Positions 10,401 through 64,000 of a stretch of DNA of 64,000 nucleotides are shown piece after piece. The notes beneath the pieces are model-generated. The model was given only the letters and a program-made list of their open reading frames with translations. It was not told the origin of the DNA and did no database searches. The position numbers and the translations under genes are program-made. The stretch lies in NCBI GenBank assembly GCA_016197005.1, contig JACPWO010000002.1, forward strand, positions 79,851-143,850, given 5' to 3'. Numbering within the stretch: the first letter of the stretch is position 1; the number at the start of each line of letters is the position of its first letter. The DNA comes from Candidatus Anderseniibacteriota bacterium (GTDB lineage: Bacteria; Patescibacteriota; Andersenbacteria; UBA10190).

Positions 10401-10458
10401 CCTTTCATTACTTTAGAGCGCACTTAAGCACTCAGTAACGGACTCGACCTTACGGCTA

Positions 10459-10494: not shown

Positions 10495-10495
10495 T

Positions 10496-11770: not shown

Positions 11771-11776
11771 ATACCT

Positions 11777-13588: not shown

Positions 13589-13613
13589 CAATTCGGGTCT
13601 CTGAAGGGGGATG

Positions 13614-43933: not shown

Positions 43934-45390
43934 GCTGCGAAGAAGAGAATCATGATCGTAATGACAGCTGCGGCATAACTAAACCAATCTTTACCAGCGT
44001 AAACCGTTGGATCTTCATGCATGCTGCCCGCATTAGTCACATTCCACATGCGCTGCAAGCCCAAGAAGAAAATAGGGATGAGAAGCCAGAGAAGGATCGG
44101 TGTTGTGTATAGAGGAGTTACCGCCGGACTGGTTATATACAACGCGAGTACTCCTAGAGAAAGATAGCTGCAAATAAGTCCAAGAATTGTTAGAGGTTTG
44201 CGGTGAGTTACGGTGTACCCTCGACCGGTGGCCTTTTTGCGTCCGCTTTCTTCAAGGTTACTAATCTCAGAGACTCGTTTTATTAAAGCCAAGCTAAAGA
44301 AAATGAGGGCAGCAAACAGCAAGAGCCATGGAGATACAGGAATGCCGGTCGCCGCGCTGCCAGCAAAAATTCTCAGGACATAGAGCGATGTTATAAGGAT
44401 AACGTCGAGAGCAATAACTTTTTTAAGGCGAAGAGAATACGCCAGATTGAGAACGATATAAATAAGAATGAGCCACAAGAATGGAAGCGGCAGAAGGAGT
44501 GTTATGAGTAAACTTAAAATACCCAGGGTAAGTCCGGAGATAAGAGCCGTTTTTATGGTCATCTTTCCGGAGGCAAGTGGACGGTGTTTTTTGTGAGGAT
44601 TCTGGCGATCAGCCGGAAGATCAACTAAATCATTTAAAAGATATACTGCGGAGGCAATGGCGCTAAAGGAGATGAAAGCAAAACCGGCCATACCTAATGC
44701 TGGAATATTGAATATTTGATGAGCAGTAAGCAGAGGAACGAAAATAAGAAGATTTTTTATCCATTGATGCCAGCGAATACTTCGCAAAAAGACTTTCAGT
44801 GAAAGTCGATGTTCACCAATTGTTTGTGAGATAGGCCCAAGTTTTTTGGCAGCTTCTGCAACCCCACGAGAAGTATTTACCAAGATTCGCTCACTGGCAT
44901 GTTTCCAAACAATTAGATCAGCCATGGAGTTACCGGCATAGGCAAATTTTCCCTCACCGAACCTATCAATCAGAGCCGCGGCTTTGTCAGAGCCAGTCAT
45001 TCCCCGCGCTTTGCTACTAGCGATGACGTCGTCAAAAAGACCAATGTGTTCTGCAACCATACGGGCAAATTTTTCATTACTTCCCGTCACCAGATACAAC
45101 TTTCGGCCATTTTGCCTTTCGTGTTTCAAATACTCAATAAGTGCTTCATTATAAGGTAGTAAATCCACCACCAGTTCTGCCCGTGAGGCAATTTCATGTT
45201 TACCGGCCCCTTTCCCGGACTTCATCCACCGAAAAACGTGCAGTGCCATGAATGGTTTGTCCTTGAGGAGCGTAAACAAAGCCTCGGCCATTGTATCGGA
45301 AAGTGTCAGCGTTCCGTCTAAATCTACGCATAAAGGGGGCTTCTGCAGCATATGGCGATGGTAGCAGGGCAGTGTCAGGTTTGCTACCAT
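43930..45390 (-). CDS. HAD-phosphatase / UbiA prenyltransferase fusion (decaprenyl-phosphate phosphoribosyltransferase-like)
   Basis: The N-terminal HAD motifs are CVDLDGTLTLSD (motif I), LVTGSN, K...GNSMADL. The C-terminal part has about 8 TM helices and the UbiA Asp-rich motif LLNDLVDLPADRQN. Its stop overlaps the DprE1-like ATG. Confidence 0.8.
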   Translation of the reverse strand: MVANLTLPCYHRHMLQKPPLCVDLDGTLTLSDTMAEALFTLLKDKPFMALHVFRWMKSGKGAGKHEIASRAELVVDLLPYNEALIEYLKHERQNGRKLYLVTGSNEKFARMVAEHIGLFDDVIASSKARGMTGSDKAAALIDRFGEGKFAYAGNSMADLIVWKHASERILVNTSRGVAEAAKKLGPISQTIGEHRLSLKVFLRSIRWHQWIKNLLIFVPLLTAHQIFNIPALGMAGFAFISFSAIASAVYLLNDLVDLPADRQNPHKKHRPLASGKMTIKTALISGLTLGILSLLITLLLPLPFLWLILIYIVLNLAYSLRLKKVIALDVILITSLYVLRIFAGSAATGIPVSPWLLLFAALIFFSLALIKRVSEISNLEESGRKKATGRGYTVTHRKPLTILGLICSYLSLGVLALYITSPAVTPLYTTPILLWLLIPIFFLGLQRMWNVTNAGSMHEDPTVYAGKDWFSYAAAVITIMILFFAA

Positions 45391-51983: not shown

Positions 51984-52505
51984 ATGAAAACAGGCACTAT
52001 AACAGCAGTTGTTGGGGTAGTTATTATCGTAGCTGTAGCTAGTATGTTCGCTTTTCGAACTCCGGCCGAGGCACCAGCAGTAACACCAACTCCAGGATTC
52101 CAGGACGCAACGGCACCAGCATCAGATAGCGGTCAGTTTATTCAGCTGCAGCCGAGCACAACTCCTAATACGTCTCTTTTGCCAAGCGTAAGCCCCGCGG
52201 CTGGAACGACCCAACAGAACACAACTACTGCCGAATCAATTGCCATTTCTATTGATGACACTGGCTTTACTCCTCGCACAGTAAGTATTGCTTCGGGAAC
52301 AACAGTTGTATTTACAAATAATGGACAAGCGAAGCACTGGCCTGCGTCTGATGTTCACCCTACCCATCAAGCCTTACCAGGATTTGATGCTAAGCATGGG
52401 CTAGAAACAGGCGAGACATACTCATTCACATTTATCAAGACGGGTAGCTGGAATATGCACGATCATCTTAACCCCAGTGCTACCGGCATAATTACCGTTC
52501 AATAG
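51984..52505 (+). CDS. secreted or anchored cupredoxin-like domain protein (copper site apparently degenerate)
   Basis: N-terminal TM; Pro/Thr-rich linker; C-terminal beta-sandwich pattern TVSIASGTTVVFTNNG...HW...GETYSFTF...GSWNMHDHLNP...GIITV. This resembles the cupredoxin_1 or EfeO fold, but no Cys ligand is present. Confidence 0.4.
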   Translation: MKTGTITAVVGVVIIVAVASMFAFRTPAEAPAVTPTPGFQDATAPASDSGQFIQLQPSTTPNTSLLPSVSPAAGTTQQNTTTAESIAISIDDTGFTPRTVSIASGTTVVFTNNGQAKHWPASDVHPTHQALPGFDAKHGLETGETYSFTFIKTGSWNMHDHLNPSATGIITVQ

Positions 52506-52538: not shown

Positions 52539-52547
52539 TGCTATACT
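52539..52547 (+). promoter_or_regulatory. extended -10 element TGcTATACT immediately upstream of pilB
   Basis: TATACT ends 6 nt before the ATG at 52554. No SD. Suggests a leaderless start for the pilus operon. Confidence 0.3.
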
Positions 52548-52553
52548 TTTCGA

Positions 52554-54278
52554 ATGGCGGAAAATACCGGCGTCAAAATCCTTCAGTCGCTAGCCGAGAA
52601 GCAGCTCATTACGTTTGAGCAAGCTAATCAGCTGCGTGGTCAGATTGAAGGCGGCGCCAATTTATACGAACTGTTAGTGGATGGCAAGGTTGTAAACGAA
52701 GACCAATATATGGAGGCGTACGCTGCGGCCGTAGAAATTCCATATGTGAATGTCGGCGAGATGCAGATTCCGAAAGAGATCCTCGATATTGTCCCTGAAT
52801 CCACCGCGCGTGGGCATCGCATTGTCGCGTATGAACAAACCCCCGACCTCGTAAAGGTAGCAATGGCTGATCCAAGTGATCGGCAGATTGTTGAATTCAT
52901 CCGCAAAAAAGTAGATGTACCAGTAGAAGTAGCTATTACTTCGCCTTCGAGTATTCGCAAAGTCTTAGCACAGTATCAAGATACTCTTGAAGCCGAGCTT
53001 TCCAACTTAATTAAGCAAGCTCAAACAGTTACTGGCACGGGAGAGCTGACAAAAGTAGCCGAAGACCTGCCGACAGTTAAAATAACAGAAGCAATTTTGA
53101 AGCACGCTATTCTGCAGGGAGCTTCAGATATACATATTGAACCAACGGAAGACCAGCTCATAGTACGGTATCGAGTTGATGGGCTGCTGCACAATGTTCT
53201 AACGCTCCCGAAAGCGGTGATGGCGGGATTGGTGGCACGTATAAAAATCTTAAGTCGTCTCAAAATTGACGAACATCGTCTGCCTCAGGACGGACGTTTT
53301 AAACTAGAAAGTGATGATTACCAGGTAGCATTCCGTGTTTCAACGCTCCCGGTATTTGATGGCGAAAAAGTTGTTATGCGTTTACTCGATGAATCTGGAC
53401 AAGGACTGAAGCTTGATGATATCGGCATGAACGACAAGGCGCTCAAGGTATTCCGCAAAAATATTAATGAACCGCACGGTATGGTGCTCGTTACTGGCCC
53501 AACTGGTTCTGGTAAAACTACTACGCTCTACGCTGCCATGCGTGAGCTTAACCAGCCAGAAGTAAACATCAGCACCATTGAAGATCCAATTGAATACCGG
53601 ATGGAAAAGATTAATCAGACGCAAGTGCAACCCAAAATTGGACTGAATTTTGCTACGGGTCTGCGCGCTCTCGTTCGTCAAGATCCCGACATTATTATGG
53701 TTGGTGAAATCCGTGACGAAGAAACCGCTTCCTTGGCGGTAAATGCTGCTTTGACTGGACATATGGTTCTTTCCACCTTACACACCAATAGCGCCGCTGG
53801 AGCGGTGCCTCGGATGCTCGATATGAAAGTAGAACCATTTTTGATTGCTACAACTGCTAATGCGCTGCTGGCGCAACGTCTTGTCCGCAAACTCTGTCAA
53901 GAATGTAAGGTCGCCGGAAAAGCAGATAAAACGATTATGGATAGCCTGGCAGCCGCTTTAGATATTGAGCACATGCTCAAAGTGCTTCAGGAACAAGGAG
54001 CAGTAAAAAAGGAAGCTGCTTGGGAGGACATCCCTATTTTCCAACCAAAAGGGTGTCCTAAATGCCAAGATGGTTATCGCGGACGACTGGGTATTTACGA
54101 GATATTTGAATTAAGTCCAGCCATTCAGAAATTAATTACCTCGAACGTTACTTCACAGGATATAGAAACAAAGGCACGGGAAGAGCAGGGAATGGTGACT
54201 ATGATTGAAGATGGGATGATAAAAGTTACCCAAGGTATTACCAGTGTGGAAGAAATTCTTCGAGTCGCTAAAGAATAA
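52554..54278 (+). CDS. pilB: type IV pilus / T2SS assembly ATPase PilB (GspE family)
   Basis: N-terminal T2SE_N domain; Walker A LVTGPTGSGKTTTLYA; Asp box; Walker B; His box; the CxxC...CxxC tetracysteine motif CQEC...CPKC. Confidence 0.9.
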   Translation: MAENTGVKILQSLAEKQLITFEQANQLRGQIEGGANLYELLVDGKVVNEDQYMEAYAAAVEIPYVNVGEMQIPKEILDIVPESTARGHRIVAYEQTPDLVKVAMADPSDRQIVEFIRKKVDVPVEVAITSPSSIRKVLAQYQDTLEAELSNLIKQAQTVTGTGELTKVAEDLPTVKITEAILKHAILQGASDIHIEPTEDQLIVRYRVDGLLHNVLTLPKAVMAGLVARIKILSRLKIDEHRLPQDGRFKLESDDYQVAFRVSTLPVFDGEKVVMRLLDESGQGLKLDDIGMNDKALKVFRKNINEPHGMVLVTGPTGSGKTTTLYAAMRELNQPEVNISTIEDPIEYRMEKINQTQVQPKIGLNFATGLRALVRQDPDIIMVGEIRDEETASLAVNAALTGHMVLSTLHTNSAAGAVPRMLDMKVEPFLIATTANALLAQRLVRKLCQECKVAGKADKTIMDSLAAALDIEHMLKVLQEQGAVKKEAAWEDIPIFQPKGCPKCQDGYRGRLGIYEIFELSPAIQKLITSNVTSQDIETKAREEQGMVTMIEDGMIKVTQGITSVEEILRVAKE

Positions 54279-54292
54279 GATATACTTTATAT

Positions 54293-55510
54293 ATGCCAAT
54301 ATTCTCTTTTGAGGGGCGAAGAGAAGACACTGGAGAAGTTGTGTCCGGAGCACGGGAAGCAGTCTCGCATACGGCGCTCGGGCAAGATCTTCTGTCAGAA
54401 GGAGTTTTACTAACTCGTTTTGAGGAAAAGAAACGGAAAAGTCCGGCCGATTCTATATTTGCGTCTCTCCTGGCCCATGTTCCAGTGCTTGAGCGATTAC
54501 TCTTTGCTCGTTACTTCGCTCTTATGCTTCGAGCGGGATTAGATGTGAAGCGCTCACTGGCTGCCCTGGCTGAACAAACGCGGAGTAAACCAATGAAAGC
54601 GGCGCTGCAGTCGGTCTATCAAGGAATTGAGCGTGGACAGCAGCTGGCCGAAAGTATGGCAGCACATACCAATGTGTTTTCTGAGCTATTTGTTAGTTTC
54701 ATTCGTGTCGGTGAGGCTTCCGGACGTTTACAAGAGTCTTTGGAAATTTTGGCCAAACAGCTACAAAAAGAATTTGAACTCAAGCGTGCTGTCCGGGGTG
54801 GTCTTCTTTATCCAGCCATTATTGTGCTGGCCCTGATTGCCGTTGGAATCGCGATGATGATATTCGTGATTCCAAAGTTAGTAGAAGTATTCGAAGGATT
54901 TGATGTTGAGTTACCGCTCACAACTCGTATTTTGATTACCACGAGTGGTTTTTTCCATCATTACTGGTACCTCGTTATTCTCATTGTCATTATTCTGGTT
55001 GGAGGAAGTTGGGGGCTGCTACGAGTGAAATCAGTGAAAGCATTCATTATGCACTGGATGCTGTATGTGCCAATCATCGGCAATATTATTCAGCGAGTGA
55101 ATCTTGCTCGATTCTCCCGAAATATTAGCTCGCTGCTCGATAGCGGCGTGCCATTCATTGAAACGCTGCAGATATTAGGGGAAAACACCCCCCACCCTTC
55201 CTATGCTGCTGTATTTGCTGGGGCCGCTGATTATGTGAAGCAGGGAAAAGAGTTAAGCGCATATTTATCTCAACATGAGAAACTATTTCCTTCTCTGGTG
55301 ACGAATATTATGAAAGTAGGAGAAGAGACAGGTGAGCTAGCTGCAGTATTACAAGAAGTAGCTATCTTCTATGAAAGTGAAGTAGACCAGACGATGAAGA
55401 ATTTAACTTCGGTTATGGAGCCAGTGCTCATGGTCGTAATTGGTCTCGCCGTTGGTGCTCTGGCTATTTCCATCATCTCCCCAATTTACGGATTGGTGAA
55501 TGTAATTTAA
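54293..55510 (+). CDS. pilC: type IV pilus platform protein PilC (GspF family)
   Basis: 405 aa with two GspF repeats and 3 TM helices; typical FARYFALMLRAGLDVKRSL and LSSLLDSGVPFIETLQIL blocks. Confidence 0.85.
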   Translation: MPIFSFEGRREDTGEVVSGAREAVSHTALGQDLLSEGVLLTRFEEKKRKSPADSIFASLLAHVPVLERLLFARYFALMLRAGLDVKRSLAALAEQTRSKPMKAALQSVYQGIERGQQLAESMAAHTNVFSELFVSFIRVGEASGRLQESLEILAKQLQKEFELKRAVRGGLLYPAIIVLALIAVGIAMMIFVIPKLVEVFEGFDVELPLTTRILITTSGFFHHYWYLVILIVIILVGGSWGLLRVKSVKAFIMHWMLYVPIIGNIIQRVNLARFSRNISSLLDSGVPFIETLQILGENTPHPSYAAVFAGAADYVKQGKELSAYLSQHEKLFPSLVTNIMKVGEETGELAAVLQEVAIFYESEVDQTMKNLTSVMEPVLMVVIGLAVGALAISIISPIYGLVNVI

Positions 55511-55518
55511 GTGCGGCC

Positions 55519-56988
55519 ATGAACGGTAGTCGCGGCTTTACCATTATCGAAATCGTAATAACGACGTTTCTTATTGGTACGGTTGTCGTCGGCGTCTTCG
55601 GTCTTTTCTTGCTATCACTGCGCTCTGCTCAAGAGTCGGAGAGACGAGTAGTAGCAGTGGCACTTGCGAATGAACGAATGGAAATGGTACGGAATCTTCC
55701 TTATGTAAACGTTGGCACGTCTGGTGGTATTCCAACGGGGCCTATTTTGCAGATCGAGACAGTTGCTCGCAATGGCTTAGATTATTTAGTGAAAACAGAC
55801 ATTCGATACGTTGACGATGAATATGATGGAAAGGCTGCTGCGCCAACTGAAGAGGATGATCATATAACCATTTGTCATCGCCCGGGGACTCAATCAGAAA
55901 ACACTCTCACTATTAGTTCGCAAGCTTGGCCGGCTCACCAAGCTCATGGTGACTATCAAGGAGAATGTGGTAATCCTGATGATGGCACGGGAGATGGTGA
56001 CGAATATAACGCAGATTACAAACAGGTTCGTGTTGAAGTGTCATGGACAAGTCCTTCCAACCCGTCTCCCGTTCTCTTTATTACTTACATTGCTCCTCCC
56101 GGCATTGAGGGAGGAGAGTTAGGGGGGACACTGGATTTACAGGTAATTGACGCTGCCGGAGTAGGCGTTCCTAGTGCGCAAGTGGTCTTAATAAATGATG
56201 ATACAAGCCCAGCTATTAACCTGACTACGCAGACAGATAGCGATGGGCGCCTTATTCTTCCGGGGCTGCCGGAAGAGGCTGATTCCTACGCGTTAGCAAT
56301 ATCCAAGGCAGGATATACCAGTGAGCAGACGTATGACTCGTCAGCCAGTTTTGTTCCTGACGCAGATCATGGACACCTTTCCATGATTTTAAAGGCGTTA
56401 ACCAGTAAAACATTTTCAATTGATGAGACGGCTTCACTGATTGTAAATACCAAAGATGCCACGGCAACTGCTGTTCCGGATATTGCATATACCCTCCGTG
56501 GTACCAAGACAATTGGTACTGATGGTAGTGGTAACCCCGTATATGTCCTTGATGAGACTGCGGCAACTAACAGTGCTGGAACTCATACCCATTCGGCGCT
56601 GGTGTGGGATTCATATAACTTTCAAGTAGACGGGGAGACGAGTGGGTATGACATAAAGGAAACGAGCTTGTTGTTACCACTTGTTGTGCTTCCCGGAGAC
56701 GATCTAACCCTGGATGTTACGCTTGTTGAGCATACGCCGCTTTCCTTACACGTCACGGTTGCGAATAGTGAAGGACTTCCAATTGACAATGCCACAGTTA
56801 CACTAACAAAGAACCCAACGTTCACCGAAGAGCAAGGGACAGGAGTTTTGGGACAAGTTTTCTTTGCTGATCTTCCCACTACTGCTACGTACACGCTTAC
56901 TGTTGATGCGCCAGGGTTCACCTCTTCGTCTCAGCAGGTACCAGTTGATGAAAGTGAACGCATTCGAGTTCAACTCTCAACGCCATGA
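55519..56988 (+). CDS. type IV pilin-like protein (class III signal peptide), large
   Basis: N-terminus MNGSRG/FTIIEIVITTFLIGTVVVGVF is a prepilin cleavage/methylation motif (G|FTxIE). 489 aa. Confidence 0.65.
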   Translation: MNGSRGFTIIEIVITTFLIGTVVVGVFGLFLLSLRSAQESERRVVAVALANERMEMVRNLPYVNVGTSGGIPTGPILQIETVARNGLDYLVKTDIRYVDDEYDGKAAAPTEEDDHITICHRPGTQSENTLTISSQAWPAHQAHGDYQGECGNPDDGTGDGDEYNADYKQVRVEVSWTSPSNPSPVLFITYIAPPGIEGGELGGTLDLQVIDAAGVGVPSAQVVLINDDTSPAINLTTQTDSDGRLILPGLPEEADSYALAISKAGYTSEQTYDSSASFVPDADHGHLSMILKALTSKTFSIDETASLIVNTKDATATAVPDIAYTLRGTKTIGTDGSGNPVYVLDETAATNSAGTHTHSALVWDSYNFQVDGETSGYDIKETSLLLPLVVLPGDDLTLDVTLVEHTPLSLHVTVANSEGLPIDNATVTLTKNPTFTEEQGTGVLGQVFFADLPTTATYTLTVDAPGFTSSSQQVPVDESERIRVQLSTP

Positions 56989-57593
56989 AAGGATTTACTG
57001 TTGTTGAGACCGTAGTCGTTTTGGGTTTAAGCTTAATGCTTATAACTGCATTGCTGCGTTTTTTAGTTGCCGGCTATCCACTGGCTTCAGTCACGCTGCT
57101 GCAATCTAATTCAAACGAAACTGCGCGGGTACAGTTAAAACGTATTGCCAAAGAAATGCGGCAGATACGATATGCAGACACCGGCGCCTATCCTTTGGTT
57201 GACATGTTGCCGCAAAAAATGGTGTTTTACGCGAATATCGATACTGATGCGGCTACTGAGCGAGTACGATACGAATTAAATGGGACTGACTTAACTCGTG
57301 CCATATTGGAACCAAGCGGAAATCCTATTACGTATAATGTTGCAAACGAACACGCAACGGTAGTGGCAAGAAATATTCGGAATGGAACTAATCCTATTTT
57401 TGTTTACTACAACGGTGATTATCCGGAGGACACTGTAGCCTTAACGCCCGCCGATGTAACCGACGTAAAATACATTCAGTTTCACTTATTGATAGACGCA
57501 AATCCCGATCGGGAACCGAATGCGATTGAAGTAGCTTCTCAGGTACAACTGCGCAATCTCAAGACGAATCTAGGGCAGACAACTGACCCGTAG
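56985..57593 (+). CDS. type IV pilin-like / pseudopilin protein
   Basis: MKG/FTVVETVVVLGLSLMLI prepilin N-terminus; 202 aa. Overlaps the previous gene by 4 nt. Confidence 0.65.
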   Translation: MKGFTVVETVVVLGLSLMLITALLRFLVAGYPLASVTLLQSNSNETARVQLKRIAKEMRQIRYADTGAYPLVDMLPQKMVFYANIDTDAATERVRYELNGTDLTRAILEPSGNPITYNVANEHATVVARNIRNGTNPIFVYYNGDYPEDTVALTPADVTDVKYIQFHLLIDANPDREPNAIEVASQVQLRNLKTNLGQTTDP

Positions 57594-57605
57594 TATAGTA
57601 AAGAC

Positions 57606-58796
57606 ATGAGACAACAGGAGGGGTTCACGCTTATAGAAGTCTTGGTAGCTGCTTTTCTGTTGGCGGTAGGGGCTGTTGCCGTCACTGGGCTTATTATCCT
57701 AAGCTCCCGTCTTTCATTTGAGTCAGAGCGTAATGCCGTCGCTCAAGGAGTTGTGAATCAATGGATAGAGTATGTTCGCGTGCTCGATTACGACCAGGTT
57801 GCACTCACCGCGGCTGCCCCTGATTCTGGATTATTGACCGACCAAGAAATAAATCAGAATGGACAAAAATATAATCTTTCATTTCGAGTTGAGTTAGAAG
57901 ATGATCCGGGAAATGGTATAAACACGGCGCTTGACGCCACGAATGCCGATTACAAAAAGGTATTTGTTACCGCTACCTGGAATACTGCTGGGGGCGGTAG
58001 TCGTAGTGTTGTTAGCAGTATCATCGTAACTCGTCTCAGTAATCCTATTACGTGCACCTCTGGTAATTACTCGTGCCCCGGCCCCGCTGGAAATAAGAGT
58101 GTTCGCTGTCCGGCTAGTGGGTTTTGTCCAGCCGTTCAGCTTTGTAATCCGGGCGAGCGACAATGTTTTGGTAATACGGTAATCTGTCCATCTGATGGTC
58201 GTTGTCCAGGATCACCCCCCGATCCCGATACGAGCTGCCCGGCCGAAGCATATTTTTGTAGTGACACAACAAGTGGTGGAATTGTCTTGAGTGAATTTTT
58301 CCCTGACCCGGAAGGAACAACTGATGACGATGAATACATTGAAATTACCAATACTGGTAACGGCAGTCTTGATTTAACTGGCTGGAAGCTTGATGACGGA
58401 CCTGGTGGCAGCTCGCCTTACTTCATTCCGCCCGGCACCATTATTCCTCCGGGCGACTACACAACGTTTGATCGCTCGGATACTAATATAGAGCTTGATA
58501 ATAATGGCGACAGTGTTCGTGTCTTTGATCCATATTGGAATAATGTTATTGATGAATCATACGACGAGGCCGTTGAAGGACAGTCATACACCTGGGTGTG
58601 CGATAGTTGTGGTAGTGGCAGTAGTGGTGGGGGTAGTAACGGTGGTGGCAGCAGTGGTGGATATGGTTGGTATCCTCCCTCACCGGGTGGACCGGGACCG
58701 AGCGGAGGCGGGTATGGCTCAGACGATTATTCTGGTTCCGATGATTACGACGGTGACGGGTGCAGCAATCTTAATGAATATTTAGGAAATTGCTAA
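57606..58796 (+). CDS. type IV pilin-like protein with Cys-rich region and C-terminal lamin-tail domain (LTD)
   Basis: MRQQEG/FTLIEVLVAAFLLAV prepilin N-terminus. LTD signature IVLSEFFPDPEG...EYIEITNTGNGSLDLTGWKLDDGPGGSSPYFIPPGTIIPPGDY. C-terminal GSDDYSGSDDYDGDG. Confidence 0.6.
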   Translation: MRQQEGFTLIEVLVAAFLLAVGAVAVTGLIILSSRLSFESERNAVAQGVVNQWIEYVRVLDYDQVALTAAAPDSGLLTDQEINQNGQKYNLSFRVELEDDPGNGINTALDATNADYKKVFVTATWNTAGGGSRSVVSSIIVTRLSNPITCTSGNYSCPGPAGNKSVRCPASGFCPAVQLCNPGERQCFGNTVICPSDGRCPGSPPDPDTSCPAEAYFCSDTTSGGIVLSEFFPDPEGTTDDDEYIEITNTGNGSLDLTGWKLDDGPGGSSPYFIPPGTIIPPGDYTTFDRSDTNIELDNNGDSVRVFDPYWNNVIDESYDEAVEGQSYTWVCDSCGSGSSGGGSNGGGSSGGYGWYPPSPGGPGPSGGGYGSDDYSGSDDYDGDGCSNLNEYLGNC

Positions 58797-60130
58797 TGAA
58801 GTTCTCCTCCTTCAATTCTAAAGTTGGTAGTGCCCTTATAATGGTGACAGTCATTTTTGGTATGTTCGTTGTGATTATGGGAGCAACGACGGCGTATGTG
58901 AATCGTCAATTTAATCGCACGGTCCATGACGAAGCCAGGGAGGCTGCCCTTTACGCAGCCGAAGCCGGTCTCAACTACACTACACAAGCATTAACTGAAG
59001 CGTGGTATAAACCGAATGAGCTTTTAAGTAAGGGAAGTATAGGTATGCCAATTAATATTGATCCTGCCGCAAAAAGTTCTGTGTTGGTATTTTTTGGAAA
59101 AGAACCAACACTTGAAGAAAGCCAGGGACTAAGAGTTGTGTCTAACGGGCTCGCGTTCGGCGGTGAGTGCAGAGCTATTGAAGCTGTTATTCATCGAGCA
59201 TCAAATCAGAACAATGTGTTTAAGATTGCTTACCAAGACATCTTGAGCAAATGCTCAGTCCCGCGGTGTTGGGTAGGTGTCCAAGGAACACGTGACCATA
59301 CTGAAGGACCAAACGGTTCTGTCTATTACTCCTGGGCTTCTTCGGGAACAACCTCATGTTCTTCTGATACTGATGCCAGTGTATCGGGTACATCTGGTTC
59401 ATCGACCTTGGCTGGTAGCAGCTCGGAAGTAGCGGTGACGTGTCAGTGCTCTTTAGGAGGAGAAGTAACCGATTCTATTGCCTGTATACCGGGAGAAACT
59501 GCGTGTGAGCAAGGCAGCAGTGTCTCGTTACCTCCCGCTCCTGTTCCGGGTAGCTCTGATGAACCTGAATCAAATAATTCAGATCAATCGGAGGAGAATG
59601 GGAGCAACGGAACAAATCCCACACCTTCAAGCTCTTCTCCTCCTGACCCAACACCAACATCTTCTGATGATGGCAATGCTAGTGACGATGGTGATGGTGG
59701 AGATAGTGAGAATGAGGGAAATGAGGCTTCAGATGATTATGTTTCACCTACGCCACCTGGCCAGCCAGCTCCAAGTTCAACCCCAGAACCAGAACAGTGC
59801 AGCTACCAACCTTCCAGTTGTCCAGCGGGCACACCACCAAATAGTTCGTGTGTATCATGGGAATGTGACTCTGATATGGATTCAGACGACGATGATAATG
59901 GAGGCGACGGCGGAGACGATAGTGGCTCGTTTATGTGTGTAGCCGACTGTGAGCTTGCCAATGCAGATCCAGTTAGTGGTGAGTGTATTGGTGGCTATCA
60001 AACTACAATTTACTTTGAAGAGGTGCCAACCAGTGGACAAGTGTTAGCTGAGTGTCAAGGGCAACAGCTAGATACTTGTCGGGCCTATCCAGTAACGGAA
60101 CCATGTGGCGATAGCTCTGACGATTATTAA
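58790..60130 (+). CDS. PilX-like minor pilin / pilus assembly protein, Ser/Thr/Pro/Asp-rich
   Basis: N-terminus GSALIMVTVIFGMFVVIMGATTAY followed by AREAALYAAEAGLNY, as in the PilX N-terminal domain. Long low-complexity S/T/P and acidic tracts; many Cys. Confidence 0.45.
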   Translation: MLMKFSSFNSKVGSALIMVTVIFGMFVVIMGATTAYVNRQFNRTVHDEAREAALYAAEAGLNYTTQALTEAWYKPNELLSKGSIGMPINIDPAAKSSVLVFFGKEPTLEESQGLRVVSNGLAFGGECRAIEAVIHRASNQNNVFKIAYQDILSKCSVPRCWVGVQGTRDHTEGPNGSVYYSWASSGTTSCSSDTDASVSGTSGSSTLAGSSSEVAVTCQCSLGGEVTDSIACIPGETACEQGSSVSLPPAPVPGSSDEPESNNSDQSEENGSNGTNPTPSSSSPPDPTPTSSDDGNASDDGDGGDSENEGNEASDDYVSPTPPGQPAPSSTPEPEQCSYQPSSCPAGTPPNSSCVSWECDSDMDSDDDDNGGDGGDDSGSFMCVADCELANADPVSGECIGGYQTTIYFEEVPTSGQVLAECQGQQLDTCRAYPVTEPCGDSSDDY

Positions 60131-60138
60131 CACGTGAT

Positions 60139-62718
60139 ATGAATAAATATTGGATTAAACAAGCAAAAGGATACACCGCAGTTGAATTGGTGATTGCAAT
60201 GGGCATTGCTGGTCTCGTCATTGCGGCTACTTCTTTGTTTATTAGCCGCGGTATTGGCAGTAATAGGCAACAATTTGAGCAAGTACTAACAACGGAAAAT
60301 GCTCGAAAACAATTAAAAACTATTTCGGATACAGTGCGAGACGCGCGGAATCGAGTACAAGATGATTGGCTGCTGCGGGCCGAACCGAATGAAATTATGG
60401 TGGCAGCTAATGTTGATAATGACGCAGAAATTGAGACAGTCCGATATTTTTTGGATGGCAGTGAGCTCAAGCGAGGCGTAACCCAACCAGGCGGCGAGGA
60501 AAAAGTGCGGACAGTCACTCGCGGCGCTCGTAACCTTGAATTACAGGAAAACCTATTCACCTATGCTTCTTCGGAAGGAAATACCCTAGAAGAAGGACAA
60601 GCAAATTCGGCAAATGTTGAACGAATTATTGTTTCGCTGCGCGTTGACAATAATACTGACCAGGATCCTGGAGCGGCTCAACTGCTCGTTGAGCTTACAT
60701 CTCGAGCCGATTCAACGGAAACAGCGCGCATGTGGCCAATATCACTTAATTTTCCTCAGAATCCCGAGGAATGGGACGGAGCAGATGGGCCAGTTGAAGT
60801 GACCATCACAAACCCAGAAACAGGGGAGCAAACCATGACCGAAACTACGATTGCTGCGATTAATGACGGCCGGATGGAAACGTACAGTGGTGGATACTAT
60901 GTGAATCTTAATTATCAATCAACTACAGACGGATCAGATCTTCCGGGTTGGTACACCTGGGCCGGACCAATTTTTATTGGGTCAAGAGATGGGGCAGTTA
61001 TTACGAAAATCGACAAATTTTTGCAAAACGAGCTTTGTTTAGGAAGAAACATGCCAGAACTTCTAACCGGGTGTGAGCGACGGTGGGTAGCGGCTGGAGT
61101 GGAACCAGAACTTTACAAAACCTATATTCCTATTATTTTATTCCGACAAACAAATGGCCAATTAGATTATGTAAGGGATATTTCATACGGCATCGAAAAG
61201 GAAGTCTCACCTACTCCGGAACCATCTGCAACTCCGACCCCACCAGCTGATGACACCACCTGTTTTATAGAAGTTACTGCTCCGAAGAATGGCACTGTCA
61301 AGCCGCCTACTTATAAGTGGGATTTGGCAGTCTATGTGAACGGTGGAAATCCGGACTCAAATAGTAATGAAGTTTATTACTTTGATAATGGTAAATACTT
61401 GGGATCTTCAAGCTTAAATTCCGGTTCCGGCTATGGCCTTAATTCAAACTCGGGGGGTTTTGCTCAGGGTGTAAGTATAAATCCAGCCCCAGGAAATCAC
61501 ACCGTTATTGCTACGCTTAATGCTCCACCGATAAATAGTCCAGGCGGACAGCTGGTTGTGCCGACCACGATGCCTGGAGCCTCAAGTTGTAAATCAGAGC
61601 CCATTACCTTTACGGTGTCGTCGCCGTCTACTCCCACGCCAACTCCAACTGGCAGCGCTGCCTGTACTGATTTTGCTCCGTTTCTATCCATTACCACTAA
61701 TCCGATGTGCATTAACAAGCCACAGCTTTTCTTGCCAGCTGTCATGGAAGATATCAATTTTACCGGCAAAATTGATCCTGGCTTATTGCAATATGTTGGT
61801 ATTACGAGTGTTTCTTTCGTTTCATACAGTGATGGATGCCCACTTCAGCCAGGAGGCCAAGTTTCAGGTCAAAGGCAAAAAAATTGGAATTATACCGGAA
61901 GTAACGTCTACGACGGGCAGCTGGAATATAGCAGTAGCGATCGAACACAAGCCTGTGCTGATAATTTTACGATTAGATTCCAGGTAACTTATGTAAATAA
62001 AGCTACCGGCAAAATCGGAAATGTAACTGCTATTAAGACGTTAGATCCATGTTTTATGGATGCTTGGGGACAACCAACTCCCGCTCCGACCCCTTCCTCA
62101 TCCTGTCCAGTAGCATCAACTCCAACACCTACTCCAACACCTACTTCTAACCCAACTTCTAACCCAACTCCAGCACCAGAAATAGCTAACCCGCCCACTC
62201 TTACCTGGGCAAATCTCGGTCCTGGCTGTTATAACCCGGGAGAGACATTTGTTACGAACTTCACTCTTAAACTCCCGTCGCAAAACACCTACAATGCCGG
62301 GTATATTGGACCAGCTGTTATTCGAGCGGTTGAAGGGTATAGCAGTGCCCCGGGCATTACCATTTACAGCAATGATCCACCCGAACCACAGGAACAAACG
62401 AGCGCTGGTGGTACCTCACCCAATCGACTCACTGATATCACTGCTACAAAAATACACTCCTTAACGAAGCAACAAGACCTTATATATACCGTATCTTTTC
62501 ATGTTAATGAGCTCGTAGATTCAGGAGCAGGGAATACAAGAAACGGTCCCGTTACCATACCGTTTAAAGTGAATTATGATGTAAAGCCCGGTTTGCCCGG
62601 TGGCGACGGTATACTCGAAACTACATCGTCTATTAGTAGATGTTGTCATTACCAACCAGTCCAGTGTCCCAGCGGATCGGCGCCAGGAAGTTTCTGTCAG
62701 GCCTGGGTATGTCCCTAA
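60139..62718 (+). CDS. large pilin-like protein (859 aa) with Thr/Pro-rich linkers
   Basis: MNKYWIKQAKG/YTAVELVIAMGIAGLVIAA prepilin-type N-terminus. Linkers SPTPEPSATPTPPADDTT, SSPSTPTPTPTGSA, PTPAPTPSSSCPVASTPTPTPTPTSNPTSNPTPAPE. Confidence 0.55.
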   Translation: MNKYWIKQAKGYTAVELVIAMGIAGLVIAATSLFISRGIGSNRQQFEQVLTTENARKQLKTISDTVRDARNRVQDDWLLRAEPNEIMVAANVDNDAEIETVRYFLDGSELKRGVTQPGGEEKVRTVTRGARNLELQENLFTYASSEGNTLEEGQANSANVERIIVSLRVDNNTDQDPGAAQLLVELTSRADSTETARMWPISLNFPQNPEEWDGADGPVEVTITNPETGEQTMTETTIAAINDGRMETYSGGYYVNLNYQSTTDGSDLPGWYTWAGPIFIGSRDGAVITKIDKFLQNELCLGRNMPELLTGCERRWVAAGVEPELYKTYIPIILFRQTNGQLDYVRDISYGIEKEVSPTPEPSATPTPPADDTTCFIEVTAPKNGTVKPPTYKWDLAVYVNGGNPDSNSNEVYYFDNGKYLGSSSLNSGSGYGLNSNSGGFAQGVSINPAPGNHTVIATLNAPPINSPGGQLVVPTTMPGASSCKSEPITFTVSSPSTPTPTPTGSAACTDFAPFLSITTNPMCINKPQLFLPAVMEDINFTGKIDPGLLQYVGITSVSFVSYSDGCPLQPGGQVSGQRQKNWNYTGSNVYDGQLEYSSSDRTQACADNFTIRFQVTYVNKATGKIGNVTAIKTLDPCFMDAWGQPTPAPTPSSSCPVASTPTPTPTPTSNPTSNPTPAPEIANPPTLTWANLGPGCYNPGETFVTNFTLKLPSQNTYNAGYIGPAVIRAVEGYSSAPGITIYSNDPPEPQEQTSAGGTSPNRLTDITATKIHSLTKQQDLIYTVSFHVNELVDSGAGNTRNGPVTIPFKVNYDVKPGLPGGDGILETTSSISRCCHYQPVQCPSGSAPGSFCQAWVCP

Positions 62719-62744
62719 AGAAATATTTTCGTTAGTATTTCACG

Positions 62745-64000
62745 ATGGCAACAGGATTAGAAAAACAGATCTGGATATTCCTAGGTTTGCTGGGAGTGGG
62801 ACTTTATTGCCTATTCTTGAACTATCCTAATCAGGTCATATTTGATGAAGTTCATTTTGGAAAATTTGTAACTGCTTACTGTTGCACTGGTGAGCGATTC
62901 TTTGATATTCACCCGCCGCACGCCAAGTTACTCATTGCCGGCGGTGCCAAAATTCTGGGATATACTGGTGGGTTTGATTTTGATCATATTGGAGAATCGT
63001 ATGGGGATATATCGCCGTGGAAGCTGCGAGCGGTACCAGCCTTGGCGGGAGCTCTCCTTCCACTCGTCATCTTTGGAATCTTGCGTGCGGTGGGAGTATC
63101 GCTCTCCTTTTCAATTGTGGGAGCCTTGGCGATTGCTCTCAATAATGCGCTGATTGTGCAGTCGCGGCTTATTGGGTTAGACAGTATGCTTCTCCTATTT
63201 GAGTTCAGTGCCGTTTTGGCGTCAATTCGCGGCATGAAAAAACTGCCCCAGATAGAGTGGAAGTGGTGGGTTGTTGCCGGTGCACTATCTGGGTTAGCTC
63301 TCGGAGTTAAATTTACCGGTCTGGCGGCAATCGCAATAGTCATGTGTATTGTTGTTATTACGCTTGCTGAAGAATTACGACAGCATTCGGTTAGTTCAAT
63401 ACTGTTTTCTCGTTACACGAAAATAGTAGCAACTGTTCTAGCGTCAGCGTTTATTGTGTATGTAGGCGGTTGGTTTCTTCACTTTCAACTTCTTACTAAC
63501 CCTGGATCGGGCGATGCCTGGGGAATACCAACCGGAAATTTTGTTACCGATGTCATTAAGGAACACAAGACTATGCTGGGAGCGAACTATAACCTCACCG
63601 CAACGCATCCGTATGAAAGTAAGTGGTGGCAGTGGCCGGTCATGACCCGCTCGGTATTTTATTGGACGGGTCCTAACGGTGAGTGGATATACTTCTTGGG
63701 AAATCCAATTATTTGGATCGGCTCTTCTTTGATATTTCTGACTGCTCTCTTCTCAGCTGCGCTTAGTGGTTTACGCCACTGGCCCCGAATTGCTTGGATT
63801 TTCCTCGCTGGTTACCTGATTGCATATATTCCACTTATGCGTGTCCCACGAGCACTATTTCTCTATCACTATTTAACGCCACTTCTCTTCGCAATTTTGT
63901 TGGGAGTGTGGTGGCTGGATGCTACACTGTCAGGTGAAACAAAAAAGAAGGCGGCGGTAGGGTTAGGAATTTTATTTGTGCTGGGTTTTGTGGCTATGGC
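62745..64000 (+). CDS. PMT-family (GT39, GT-C fold) protein O-glycosyltransferase, 3'-truncated by the window end
   Basis: I translated frame 0 from the ATG at 62745 by hand. It is absent from the ORF track because no stop occurs before the window end. MATGLEKQIWIFLGLLGVGLYCLFLNYPNQVIFDEVHFGKFVTAYCCTGERFFDIHPPHAKLLIAGG is the canonical PMT N-terminal loop with the DE motif. Later LIVQSRLIGLDSMLL and HPYESKWWQWP also fit. It starts 26 nt after the last pilin-like gene. Confidence 0.8.
   Translation, partial: MATGLEKQIWIFLGLLGVGLYCLFLNYPNQVIFDEVHFGKFVTAYCCTGERFFDIHPPHAKLLIAGGAKILGYTGGFDFDHIGESYGDISPWKLRAVPALAGALLPLVIFGILRAVGVSLSFSIVGALAIALNNALIVQSRLIGLDSMLLLFEFSAVLASIRGMKKLPQIEWKWWVVAGALSGLALGVKFTGLAAIAIVMCIVVITLAEELRQHSVSSILFSRYTKIVATVLASAFIVYVGGWFLHFQLLTNPGSGDAWGIPTGNFVTDVIKEHKTMLGANYNLTATHPYESKWWQWPVMTRSVFYWTGPNGEWIYFLGNPIIWIGSSLIFLTALFSAALSGLRHWPRIAWIFLAGYLIAYIPLMRVPRALFLYHYLTPLLFAILLGVWWLDATLSGETKKKAAVGLGILFVLGFVAM

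Follow-up and report, generated by a model that had tools for sequence, protein, structure and literature searches.

A glycosyltransferase gene of the protein O-mannosyltransferase (PMT) family GT39 lies within a type IV pilus operon of an Andersenbacteria genome, which raises the question of whether its product is dedicated to pilins or serves the cell more generally. The window (i.e., the whole 64,000-nt stretch of contig JACPWO010000002.1 that was analyzed) carries on its plus strand, head to tail, pilB, pilC, five pilin-like ORFs (mp1 to mp5), and the PMT ORF, as the ORFs and their Pfam matches confirm (Table 1). The gaps from pilB through the PMT gene are, in order, 14, 8, −4, 12, −7, 8, and 26 nt; of the 0- to 26-nt spacing claimed by a previous sequence-only reading, the upper end is correct, but two junctions are overlaps. 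The pilB product scored 550.6 bits against TIGR02538 (PilB), below the equivalog cutoff of 675.65. A cupredoxin-like gene in the same orientation, ending 48 nt 5′ of pilB, may open the operon, and its product is a candidate PMT client; orthologs occur just 5′ of pilB in five further loci (L007, L010, L013, L014, and L017).

Table 1. Features of the pilus operon, with window coordinates
Feature	Position	Strand	Evidence or sequence
Cupredoxin-like protein, membrane-anchored, with juxtamembrane S/T/P-rich linker	51984..52505	+	PF13473, E 6.6e-07; linker PSTTPNTSLLPSVSP
pilB, type IV pilus extension ATPase	52554..54278	+	PF00437, E 6.7e-134, plus MshEN domain
pilC, platform protein	54293..55510	+	PF00482 (T2SSF), two stretches, E 5.9e-56
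mp1, core minor pilin, PilV-like, 489 aa	55519..56988	+	Prepilin motif RG↓FTIIE; two CarboxypepD_reg domains
mp2, core minor pilin, 202 aa	56985..57593	+	Prepilin motif KG↓FTVVE; start overlaps mp1 stop by 4 nt
mp3, accessory pilin-like, 396 aa	57606..58796	+	Motif EG↓FTLIE; PF07963, 9.8e-08; PF00932 (lamin-tail), 1.8e-16
mp4, accessory PilX/GspK-like, 446 aa from TTG start (gene callers put the start later)	58790..60130	+	Weak GspK N-terminal match
mp4, two S/T/P-rich tracts, residues 271-295 and 318-334	59600..59791	+	GSNGTNPTPSSSSPPDPTPTSSDDG and VSPTPPGQPAPSSTPEP
mp5, accessory pilin-like, 859 aa	60139..62718	+	Motif KG↓YTAVE
mp5, Thr/Pro linker 1, residues 355-371	61201..61251	+	EVSPTPEPSATPTPPAD
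mp5, Thr/Pro linker 2, residues 486-510	61594..61668	+	...SSPSTPTPTPTGSA
mp5, Thr/Pro linker 3, residues 644-681	62068..62181	+	GQPTPAPTPSSSCPVASTPTPTPTPTSNPTSNPTPAPE
GT39 protein O-mannosyltransferase without MIR domain	62745..64000 (first 418 of 440 codons; runs off window end)	+	PF02366, PF16192
FDEVHFG, catalytic Asp-Glu (DE) motif, extracytoplasmic loop 1, residues 33-39	62841..62861	+	Invariant in 24 homologs
FDIHPP, second conserved loop-1 motif, residues 53-58	62901..62918	+	Invariant in 24 homologs

The window ends inside this operon, which comprises ~20 genes over ~18 kb. Extension past position 64000 with contig JACOTL010000006.1 (GCA_016178385.1; locus L001) recovered the full PMT gene and its neighbors. 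The ORF (L001 positions 12607 to 13929; identical to NCBI protein P0001) stops 67 nt beyond the window and encodes an intact 440-aa protein, with neither the frameshift nor the internal stop against which the sequence-only reading had cautioned. That reading had the PMT gene as the last of the operon, which is not the case: on the same strand it is followed by genes for a 460-aa PilX-like protein, PilM, PilN-like and PilO-like proteins, and a second PilM, and by further genes. PilM/N/O, correctly reported as missing from the window along with PilD and PilT, are thus encoded just beyond its end, whereas no major pilin, PilD, or PilT was found within the window or the next 10 kb. The downstream gene lies 78 nt from the PMT gene, and no terminator-like site was detected in either gap flanking the latter in L001; the sole convincing plus-strand terminator-like hairpin (L001 positions 21150 to 21166) occurs after the end of the cluster, ~7 kb past the PMT gene. 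We infer that the PMT gene is transcribed together with the pilin genes.

The frame-0 ORF starting at 62745, with the previously noted VIFDEVHFGKF...FDIHPP loop, was recovered and is a genuine GT39 PMT-family GT-C enzyme with intact catalytic motifs. It scored 131.5 bits against PF02366 (PMT; cutoff, 22.7) and 94.8 bits against PF16192 (PMT_4TMC; cutoff, 32.4), and did not match PF13231 (PMT_2) at an E value of ≤0.01. A profile search of the PDB returned only fungal PMTs (Pmt4, Pmt1, and Pmt2; E values of 6e-81 to 6e-59), aligned in two segments, one on either side of the absent MIR insert. With the AF2 model of the protein (pLDDT, 88.4; pTM, 0.92), the top seven Foldseek matches were all PMTs (TM scores of 0.86 to 0.90; 0.89 for Pmt4), followed by AglB at 0.56. 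Membership in ArnT/GT83 was rejected, as the sequence and fold matches above noise were all PMTs and ArnT was not among 50 Foldseek matches. In the profile alignment, FDEVHFG is the same in Chaetomium thermophilum Pmt4, and FDIHPP, which extends to an invariant FDIHPP..K across the 24 homologs, pairs with FFDVHPPLGK. The DE residues are needed for activity in actinobacterial PMTs (PMC11727336, PMC12331936). By these resemblances, the enzyme is most probably active and the sugar that it transfers would be mannose.

Fungal Pmt4 and Pmt1-Pmt2 (GT39; PDB 9i5k, 9e61, and 6p25) have the same GT-C transmembrane core fold, a common C-terminal 4-TM module, an identical VVFDEVHFGKF stretch in Pmt4, and FFDVHPPLGK in place of the FFDIHPPHAK found here. 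However, they are 750 to 820 aa long and bear a MIR beta-trefoil in a large external loop, whereas the 440-aa protein described here lacks MIR, is a bacterial plasma membrane enzyme, and is encoded in a pilus operon. The actinobacterial Pmt proteins (Mycobacterium tuberculosis Rv1002c, Corynebacterium glutamicum Cg_1014, and Streptomyces coelicolor Pmt) are likewise MIR-less GT39 enzymes with a DE motif, which draw on polyprenyl-phosphate-mannose and act on exported proteins, at Ser/Thr within S/T(/P)-rich linkers (PMC11727336, PMC12331936, PMC5882110). The AF2 model predicts a short beta-hairpin (strands 304-308 and 314-317) in the external-loop region of the WW-like hairpin of MtPMT. Nonetheless, the protein is shorter, belongs to another phylum and context, and is not an ortholog, scoring 27.8 bits against NF058602 (cutoff, 800); the comparison with actinobacterial sequences rests on this score, while the fungal PMT match is strong. 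To our knowledge, no actinobacterial pmt gene lies in a pilus operon.

Class III signal peptides had been assigned to all five pilin-like proteins; four carry the canonical G↓(F/Y)TxxE motif, but mp4 has a hydrophobic N terminus without G↓FxxxE, resembling that of the conserved 460-aa PilX-like protein encoded 3′ of the PMT gene, and a long acidic S/T/P/D-rich tail. The core minor pilin gene mp1, whose product has no S/T/P tract, comes after pilC in almost every CPR pilus operon examined, and mp2, without a Pfam family at an E value of 0.01, is its conserved partner in all CPR loci examined. The mp3 product, with a Cys-rich middle and a Gly/Ser-rich C terminus, is present in some genomes and missing from others. 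In mp5, a conserved N-terminal module of ~350 aa precedes strain-specific modules joined by Thr/Pro linkers; a search of 5.8 billion proteins returned only two homologs, aligned over the N-terminal 40%, and one of them (P0123) has a TPTPTP tract at the aligned position of linker 2. The (S/T)P linkers reported earlier are real, but among the pilin-like proteins they belong to the longest and the third longest rather than to the top two in length. Among 25 scorable loci, about 10 showed S/T/P-rich tracts in pilus-cluster proteins, never in the conserved core minor pilins; L010, L011, L013, L026, L048, L054, and L069 are examples with none. Because more than half of the loci lack such tracts in these proteins, no acceptor is conserved within the operon. 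Core pilus proteins showed no difference in composition with or without a PMT gene in the operon. Linkers of the same kind occur in four non-pilus secreted proteins of the window (at 15839, 26691, 30622, and 51984), and hence are not pilus-specific.

In a scan of species-representative genomes, 26 others kept the order pilB-pilC-mp1-mp2-[variable genes]-PMT-PilX-like-pilMNO, at only 59 to 67% PilB and 38 to 53% PMT identity. With this recurrence, the arrangement is far beyond chance. It was also found in 9 of the 12 Andersen-type metagenome contigs for which sequence upstream was available, and the nearest relative (L164) shares both the gene order and TPTPTP linkers. In relatives, the PMT gene often lies −4, 1, or 3 nt from its neighbors, with start/stop overlaps in many, and the PMTs linked to pilus genes fall into a single clade. 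Between mp2 and the PilX-like gene lie zero to four accessory genes of differing kinds, while the PMT gene stays next to the PilX-like gene; in ~65 other CPR operons, the PilX-like gene directly follows mp2 with no PMT gene. The placement is conserved across a whole CPR lineage yet missing from those other CPR operons, and we found no published description of a PMT gene within a pilus operon. It is best read as a putative lineage-specific insertion in Andersenbacteria. One member of this group, L009, lacks every pilus gene at the locus, where the order is cupredoxin-PMT-nucleotidyltransferase, with the cupredoxin-like ortholog directly 5′ of the PMT gene; this PMT occupies the same chromosomal frame and is nested inside the pilus-linked clade. 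Among the 80 loci kept of 223 confirmed matches in the scan, no genome appeared twice, and this PMT may be the only close GT39 in its genome. No linkage to pilus genes was seen for the homologs in Paceibacteria/Yanofskybacteria, Bdellovibrionota, and Proteobacteria; five from the latter two phyla adjoin a GT2 synthase gene. Unrelated genes near the operon (FAD oxidase, cupredoxin, nucleotidyltransferase, PrsW, epimerase, and L20) are equally syntenic in Andersenbacteria, and the conserved gene order may in part reflect no more than phylogenetic inertia.

The DPA-like donor operon invoked by the sequence-only reading consists of real genes, for UbiA-, DprE1-, and DprE2-like proteins (positions 41880 to 45390, minus strand; HAD-UbiA, 546 bits; DprE1, 352.8 bits; DprE2, 161 bits), but nothing found here supports its link to the PMT. 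These genes lie 17 to 21 kb away on the opposite strand with five unrelated genes between, and such genes occur near PMT in only 1 of 80 loci, in which UbiA alone is found at the same syntenic position. Proteobacterial and Bdellovibrionota members of this PMT subfamily adjoin a GT2 synthase gene rather than UbiA/DprE genes. Every characterized GT39 enzyme that we know of uses polyprenyl-phosphate-mannose as the donor. No synthase for this donor was found in the 74 kb examined.

Our preferred explanation, held with about even confidence, is that an active O-mannosyltransferase, probably a general one, was inserted specifically in this lineage; it would be coexpressed with the pilus genes and modify accessory pilins among other clients. 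The CPR-wide operon has the form pilB-pilC-mp1-mp2-PilX-like (460 aa)-pilM-pilN..., and the Andersenbacteria would have gained, between mp2 and the PilX-like gene, variable large accessory pilin-like proteins and the 440-aa MIR-less PMT. By homology, the enzyme would use a polyprenyl-phosphate carrier as its source of mannose on the outer side of the cytoplasmic membrane, and its acceptors would be Ser/Thr residues of proteins that are membrane-anchored or undergoing export, within stretches that are unfolded and often rich in Pro. Its gene would share a transcript with the pilin genes, to which it is probably coupled translationally in many relatives. Since prepilins reside in the membrane before assembly, with the globular portion exposed to the exterior, we infer that mp4 and mp5 are the most obvious clients in this genome, and the pili may be sugar-coated. 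The enzyme is probably the general PMT of the cell rather than pilin-only, with linker-bearing surface proteins, e.g., the cupredoxin-like protein 5′ of pilB and a subtilase, as other likely clients. A general role is consistent with L009, which keeps the PMT without pilus genes at the locus, and with actinobacterial PMTs, whose substrates are S/T-rich linkers in numerous secreted proteins (PMC11727336). Weighing against this explanation are the lack of a conserved acceptor in the operon, with more than half of the loci devoid of tracts in pilus proteins, the equal synteny of unrelated neighbors (inertia may account for part of the synteny signal), the absence of a major pilin (a possible real target) from the window and the next 10 kb, and that of the mannose donor synthase from the 74 kb examined.

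A dedicated pilin O-glycosylation system, as originally proposed, would have the PMT act on its Thr/Pro-rich pilin-like neighbors and perhaps the major pilin, possibly with a DPA-like donor from UbiA/DprE1/DprE2, whose homologs the window does encode. We consider it doubtful. The PMT gene is embedded in the operon, with its position kept in at least 26 species and overlapping start/stop codons, it shares its insertion slot with the accessory pilin-like genes, mp4 and mp5 together carry five S/T/P tracts, the nearest relative keeps both order and linkers, and glycosyltransferases in pilin clusters have precedents in TfpW and TfpO (bioRxiv 10.1101/2020.04.19.049825, PMC11841053). However, the PMT of L009 persists without pilus genes while nested in the pilus-linked clade, ~60% of loci have no tracts in pilus proteins, core pilus proteins are alike in composition regardless of PMT, similar linkers decorate non-pilus proteins, and no genome appears twice among the 80 loci kept. 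Moreover, the DPA genes are distant and on the other strand, and GT39 enzymes are mannosyltransferases, this subfamily pairing with a GT2 synthase elsewhere.

L009, the homologs without pilus linkage, the equally syntenic flanking genes, and the lack of a conserved acceptor tract in core pilus proteins would also suit a housekeeping PMT functionally unconnected with pili, which landed once in the Andersenbacteria ancestor and was kept by synteny inertia, merely using the operon promoter. This is rather unlikely: despite heavy turnover in the slot, the PMT gene keeps its place, with the last pilin-like gene on one side and the PilX-like gene on the other, its tight coupling to pilin genes in many genomes (−4 to +3 nt) points to cotranslation stoichiometry over mere tolerance, and, with abundant membrane-anchored pilins coexpressed, some modification is likely, if only opportunistic. 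Highly improbable is a non-protein acceptor, i.e., a lipid or cell-wall glycopolymer, as for ArnT-like GT-C enzymes, for instance in envelope remodeling where the pilus crosses. Some homologs have a precomputed PMT_2 match, GT-C acceptors are diverse, and the NCBI name is only "phospholipid carrier-dependent glycosyltransferase"; yet the query itself matches PMT and PMT_4TMC rather than PMT_2, its sequence and fold relatives are PMTs and not ArnT, and fungal Pmt4 has identical loop-1 motifs.

Among known pilin glycosylation enzymes, TfpW and TfpO/PilO of Pseudomonas aeruginosa and PglL of Neisseria are, as predicted here, membrane glycosyltransferases with polyprenyl-linked donors that act at the outer face, and they are likewise encoded next to pilin genes. 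TfpW is a GT-C arabinofuranosyltransferase that modifies Ser/Thr (bioRxiv 10.1101/2020.04.19.049825; PMC11841053), but not a GT39 enzyme, and TfpO and PglL are Wzy_C-type O-oligosaccharyltransferases. Their genes directly follow that of the major pilin, whereas the neighbors here encode minor and accessory pilins with no major pilin nearby, and the L009 locus argues against their type of pilin specificity for this PMT. The T4P-1 and T4P-2 systems of the saccharibacterium TM7x share with this locus type IVa-like CPR machinery that includes core minor pilins and large PilX proteins, which in TM7x lack the canonical signal for prepilin peptidase and are candidates for tip adhesins (PMC11623550). 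O-glycosylation of TM7x PilA1, PilX1, and PilX2 has been predicted only in silico, and that study mentions glycosyltransferases only for host genes and describes none in the TM7x pilus loci (PMC11623550), whereas the operon described here includes a GT39 gene.

The co-directional run of pilB, pilC, five pilin-like genes (mp1 to mp5), and a GT39 gene of the PMT family described in the sequence-only reading was confirmed on the + strand from 52554 to the window end, with intergenic gaps of 14, 8, -4, 12, -7, 8, and 26 nt in order from pilB to PMT. A regular expression run from each potential start across the 64 kb retrieved exactly four proteins with the canonical G|(F/Y)TxxE prepilin motif, all within the pilus operon; of the five class III signal peptides originally proposed, four thus stand, whereas the 446-aa ORF (mp4) has a PilX/GspK-like N terminus instead. 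The frame read from 62745 is open for 418 codons, and its extension on the 492-kb source contig JACOTL010000006.1 of assembly GCA_016178385.1 (L001; a Candidatus Andersenbacteria MAG, reached through an exact match of the mp5 protein), which continues past the window, yielded an intact 440-aa ORF free of frameshifts or premature stops, with the stop codon 67 nt past the window. The view of PMT as the last gene of the operon had to be abandoned, since a gene for a 460-aa protein with a PilX-like N terminus (X460), pilM, PilN-like and PilO-like genes, a second pilM, and further ORFs continue on the same strand. PilD and PilT are indeed missing from the window, as had been reported, but the PilM and PilN/PilO-like proteins that had likewise gone unseen are encoded just downstream; PilM_2 matched twice in this region, where the PilN and T2SSM_b matches were weak. 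The type IVa pilus components present are therefore PilB, PilC, PilM/N/O-type proteins, and the four proteins with canonical prepilin motifs. Searches by regular expression, Pfam, and tblastn failed to reveal a major pilin, PilD, or PilT anywhere in the window or within 10 kb downstream; they may be encoded elsewhere in the genome. No terminator-like site occurs in the 26-nt or 78-nt gap flanking PMT, and the sole convincing one on the + strand lies past the cluster end (L001 21150-21166); the promoter/terminator consensus scan was not enriched over shuffled sequences and was used only for the absence of terminator-like sites beside PMT.

Features of the pilus operon, its continuation on L001, and other genes discussed (window coordinates unless marked L001)
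Feature	Position	Strand	Remarks
1000-aa protein	26691-29693	+	Thr/Pro-rich linker; no Pfam match
303-aa protein	29700-30611	+	no Pfam match
S8 subtilase	30622-32304	+	Thr/Pro-rich linker
FHA-domain gene	41454-41846		beside DPA-like genes
DPA-like gene set	41880-45390	-	SDR (DprE2-like), DprE1 homologue, HAD-UbiA fusion
pilB	52554-54278	+	PF00437, E 6.7e-134
pilC	54293-55510	+	PF00482
mp1, pilin-like, 489 aa	55519-56988	+	
mp2, pilin-like, 202 aa	56985-57593	+	
mp3, pilin-like, 396 aa	57606-58796	+	
mp4, pilin-like, 446 aa	58790-60130	+	PilX/GspK-like hydrophobic N-terminus
mp5, pilin-like, 859 aa	60139-62718	+	
PMT ORF	from 62745, past window end	+	418 codons in window without stop
X460	L001 14008-15390 (window-equivalent about 64146-65528)	same as PMT	directly 3' of PMT
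pilM, first copy	L001 15395-16420	same as PMT	PF11104
PilN-like (180 aa), then PilO/T2SS-M-like (196 aa)	L001, 3' of first pilM	same as PMT	
105-aa ORF	L001, between PilO/T2SS-M-like gene and second pilM	same as PMT	
pilM, second copy	L001 17854-18891	same as PMT	243-aa and 124-aa ORFs follow
Small nucleotidyltransferase	L001 20002-20415	same as PMT	another PilN-like gene also lies here

Several features of this cluster deserve mention in their own right. Two PilM paralogues per operon, each followed by PilN/PilO-like genes, are common to many Andersenbacteria-type loci; in most other CPR loci, the PilM2-like copy alone follows the PilX-like gene. The small cytidylyl/adenylyltransferase-like gene that ends the pilus cluster in most Andersenbacteria-type loci whose downstream end was seen best matched RfaE domain II (63 bits, below the cut-off). 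Among the pilin-like proteins, mp2 gave only a nonsignificant N_methyl match in Pfam/NCBIfam (E 0.57), and in mp3 a prepilin N terminus is combined with a lamin-tail domain (PF00932, E 1.8e-16), a region rich in Cys, and a C terminus rich in Gly, Ser, and Asp; such a combination looks unusual for a minor pilin.

The PMT family call made from sequence alone was upheld by the HMM searches. PF02366 matched with 131.5 bits (cut-off, 22.7) over profile positions 3-244 of 245, and the C-terminal four-TM module PF16192 (PMT_4TMC) scored 94.8 bits on the window fragment (cut-off, 32.4) and was also precomputed for the full-length protein (P0001). The sequence contains NQVIFDEVHFGKF...FFDIHPPHAKL, in which D34-E35 within FDEVHFG forms the DE motif of the first extracytoplasmic loop and aligns to the DE of Pmt4; these residues are needed for PMT activity (PMC12331936, PMC11727336). 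FDEVHFG and FDIHPP..K are invariant in the alignment of 24 homologues, the profile of which retrieved only fungal PMTs from the PDB (CtPmt4, 5.7e-81; ScPmt1, 1.4e-71; ScPmt4, 8.8e-71; ScPmt2, 5.5e-59). VVFDEVHFGKF is identical in the PMT and fungal alignments, and FFDIHPP aligns with FFDVHPP of Pmt4. Each fungal match consists of two stretches flanking the MIR domain, the alignment jumping Pmt4 residues about 331-543; MIR is absent from the PMT described here, which has only 440 aa. The AlphaFold2 model (pLDDT 88.4, pTM 0.92) superimposed on Pmt4, Pmt1, and Pmt2 (9i5k, 9e61, 6p25) with Foldseek TM scores of 0.86-0.90, the next family being AglB/OST at 0.5-0.58. The enzyme thus shares its loop-1 motifs and GT-C fold with fungal PMT1/2/4, whereas the MIR beta-trefoil that the eukaryotic subfamilies (PMT1/2/4, POMT1/2) have in the large luminal loop is lacking; known bacterial PMTs lack MIR as well (PMC12331936). 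Assignment to ArnT/GT83, named beforehand as the outcome that would overturn the call, was rejected, as PF13231 did not match at E <= 0.01, no ArnT appeared among the PDB sequence matches or the 50 Foldseek matches, and the sequence and fold matches above the noise were PMTs. Orthology to the actinobacterial Pmt was ruled out by a score of 27.8 bits against the cut-off of 800 of its equivalog model NF058602. Collectively, the Pfam and profile matches, the predicted fold, the invariant motifs, and the low NF058602 score place the protein among the MIR-less bacterial GT39 enzymes but outside the orthologue group of the actinobacterial Pmt characterised so far. By homology, it would transfer mannose from polyprenyl-phosphate-mannose (PPM) to Ser/Thr residues of proteins; no PPM synthase turned up within the 74 kb covered.

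Conservation of the operon position was assessed with a PMT profile scan limited to one genome per species, in which 80 loci were kept of 223 confirmed matches and their ORFs were annotated with the proteins of the window. At least 26 genomes retain the order pilB-pilC-mp1-mp2-[0 to 4 variable pilin-like genes]-PMT-X460-pilM-pilN-pilO. In an NJ tree of 81 PMT sequences, the 26 pilus-linked genomes form a single clade, all of Andersenbacteria type, although some of these records carry the ENA label Saccharibacteria. Divergence within the clade is considerable (PilB identity, 59-67%; PMT identity, 38-53%), with PMT frequently overlapping or directly adjoining the genes on either side (-4, 1, or 3 nt). 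The gene order of the window recurs in the nearest relative (59% PMT identity). Reciprocally, X460 (mean identity of 63% within Andersenbacteria) was used against metagenome contigs. PMT lies immediately 5' of X460 in 9 of the 12 Andersenbacteria-type contigs with upstream sequence, whereas about 65 contigs of other CPR lineages (X460 identity, 35-45%) show pilB-pilC-mp1-mp2-X460-pilM with an empty mp2/X460 slot and no PMT. PMT and the variable large pilin-like genes are thus a lineage-specific insertion at one slot of a CPR-wide operon. Since the arrangement is lineage-conserved and PMT sits mid-operon, the original observation is essentially right and stronger than the sequence alone could show. 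In Paceibacteria/Yanofskybacteria, Bdellovibrionota, Deltaproteobacteria, and further groups, the operons of the PMT homologues contain no pilus genes; a GT2 synthase gene (PF00535) adjoins PMT in five proteobacterial or Bdellovibrionota loci.

X460 itself, with more than 500 metagenome matches and a position directly after mp2 in the approximately 65 other-CPR loci examined, appears to be a conserved CPR pilus component that has yet to be characterised; neither X460 nor mp4 has a Pfam or NCBIfam match. Three Yanofskybacteria loci (L059, L067, and L074) carry an unrelated pilus locus, consisting of pilC, a pilin gene, pilD, and three or four pilin-like genes, at 5-10 kb from PMT on the opposite strand; this proximity was probably inherited from their common ancestor and is likely to be coincidental. 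In the midpoint-rooted NJ tree, which has no support values, the PMT clade of Andersenbacteria falls with the enzymes of Proteobacteria, Bdellovibrionota, and Nitrospirales, not with those of other Patescibacteria, a placement that hints weakly at horizontal acquisition.

The distribution of Ser/Thr/Pro (S/T/P) tracts bears on the candidate acceptors. Two such tracts occur in mp4 and three in mp5. Only two relatives of mp5 were detectable among 5.8 billion proteins; what both share with it is just the pilin-like module at the N terminus (about 350 aa), and one of them retains TPTPTP linkers between otherwise unrelated modules. These features fit a modular tip or adhesin protein undergoing rapid diversification. 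With two partial relatives, domain assignment and deep alignment of mp5 were not possible, and its AlphaFold2 model, built from a three-sequence alignment, was unusable (pLDDT 30.4). Of the 25 loci that could be scored, only about 10 have stringent S/T/P tracts in pilus-cluster proteins; PMT directly follows mp2 in six genomes, five of which (L010, L011, L013, L014, and L026) have no Thr/Pro tract in the pilus cluster. The S/T/P composition of mp1, mp2, and X460 did not differ between operons with and without PMT, and a co-evolved acceptor tract in the core pilus proteins was discarded on these grounds. Linkers of the same kind are found outside the pilus genes of the window, in a 209-aa membrane protein (15839), the 1000-aa protein (26691), the subtilase (30622), and a cupredoxin-like protein encoded just 5' of pilB (51984). 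Because each bears a Thr/Pro-rich linker, the 1000-aa protein and the subtilase are further candidate O-mannosylation clients.

A PMT locus in another Andersenbacteria MAG (L009; DATIIA01, contig DATIIA010000082.1) has the outer gene order of the window over positions 1-12154 (HAD-UbiA, MscS, Lgt, UvrD-like helicase, FAD oxidase, and cupredoxin) and no pilus genes. Its intact PMT (9998-11323) nests beside those of L013 and L014 in the NJ tree and lies directly between the cupredoxin gene, which thus still adjoins PMT, and a small nucleotidyltransferase gene (11328-11738) 4 nt downstream, of the type that normally closes the pilus cluster. L009 may be a natural pilus-less variant.

How far the enzyme is devoted to the pilus can be judged from these observations. 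A connection of the enzyme to the pilus draws strength from the tight coupling of PMT to pilin genes, from its place next to accessory or minor pilin genes in at least 26 genomes, and from the persistence of this position despite heavy gene turnover in its own slot; moreover, pilin biogenesis and PMT topology suggest that prepilins, anchored in the membrane with the globular part exposed, would be within reach of the PMT active site. A pilin-adjacent, positionally conserved PMT is what survives of the earlier proposal of dedicated pilin glycosylation. Exclusivity is argued against by the intact PMT of L009 at a locus devoid of pilus genes, the sparse tracts with no conserved acceptor among pilus-cluster proteins, and the linkers on non-pilus proteins, and no genome had two PMT loci among the 80 kept of 223 confirmed matches. 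We therefore regard an enzyme dedicated to pilins as doubtful, and its combination with a DPA donor overreaches.

A housekeeping enzyme with no role in the pilus appears unlikely, and action of a protein with this PMT fold on a non-protein acceptor is very improbable. Recruitment of a eukaryote-like GT39 PMT as an integral pilus accessory, which would O-mannosylate accessory pilins or those of the pilus tip, and perhaps also the major pilin, while they wait in the membrane, can be put forward tentatively. The reading we prefer, at about even confidence, is that of an active, probably general protein O-mannosyltransferase: Andersenbacteria would have inserted a general PMT into the accessory slot of the pilus operon, where it would be co-expressed with linker-bearing pilus proteins and probably modify them.

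The DPA-like donor genes invoked earlier are real, but their link to PMT found no support. DprE2 and DprE1 models scored 161 bits (cut-off, 250) and 352.8 bits (cut-off, 500), respectively, and the HAD-phosphatase/UbiA fusion (PRK08238) scored 546 bits, above its cut-off; this fusion resembles the described fused phosphatase-PPPRS enzymes (PMC11127046). As judged from these matches, the set is a predicted polyprenyl-phospho-pentofuranose donor pathway. It lies 17-21 kb from PMT on the opposite strand, with five unrelated genes between. BLAST of UbiA, DprE1, DprE2, and DUF2079 against the ORFs of 83 loci gave one UbiA match, at the syntenic position in L009; among the 80 PMT loci kept of 223 confirmed matches, L009 alone has UbiA within 10 kb of PMT, and none has DprE1 or DprE2. 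The sole UbiA match being syntenic, a DPA donor feeding PMT was rejected for want of support, the distance and strand also speaking against it. L009 retains the UbiA fusion, with a GT4 gene in the place expected for DprE1/E2. No GT-C gene adjoins the DPA-like set in the window; a DUF2079 membrane protein (PF09852, E 6.5e-44; 18741-20213, +), encoded directly 5' of FBPase and class I aldolase genes, is possibly GT-C-like and would be an equally plausible partner for the DPA-like pathway.

CPR/Patescibacteria rely on type IV pili for host attachment, and we know of no report on post-translational modification of these pili. Our literature search found no paper joining a PMT/GT39 enzyme to type IV pili or to Patescibacteria. 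Actinobacteria are the only bacteria with characterised GT39 enzymes, although thousands of bacterial genomes encode members of the family (PMC11727336); a study of Saccharibacteria pili predicted O-glycosylation sites in silico only and named no enzyme (PMC11623550). The present finding joins two known kinds, the bacterial PMT and the pilus-cluster glycosyltransferase. If PMT was recruited to the pilus, the result would be a PMT-type pilin glycosylation system without precedent and, for the first time, a functional context for a bacterial PMT outside Actinobacteria, and a glycan coat might influence how these ultrasmall episymbionts attach to hosts or evade phages; a merely general PMT would still extend protein O-mannosylation to a new phylum, a less remarkable result. 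With PMT fixed in the pilus operon throughout a CPR class, glycosylated pili in uncultured episymbionts become a concrete, testable hypothesis. The interval between mp2 and the PilX-like gene emerges as a variable cargo slot of the CPR pilus operon that collects lineage-specific adhesin-like genes and PMT, and a compact 440-aa MIR-less PMT with fungal-type loop-1 catalytic motifs could serve structural and mechanistic work.

Finally, a 558-aa ORF elsewhere in the window (35378-37054, -), in an operon with DHFR (34896-35381) and SHMT (33650-34918), contains two Thy1 (ThyX) stretches. ThyX proteins are usually about half this length, and the ORF may encode a tandem-fused flavin-dependent thymidylate synthase.
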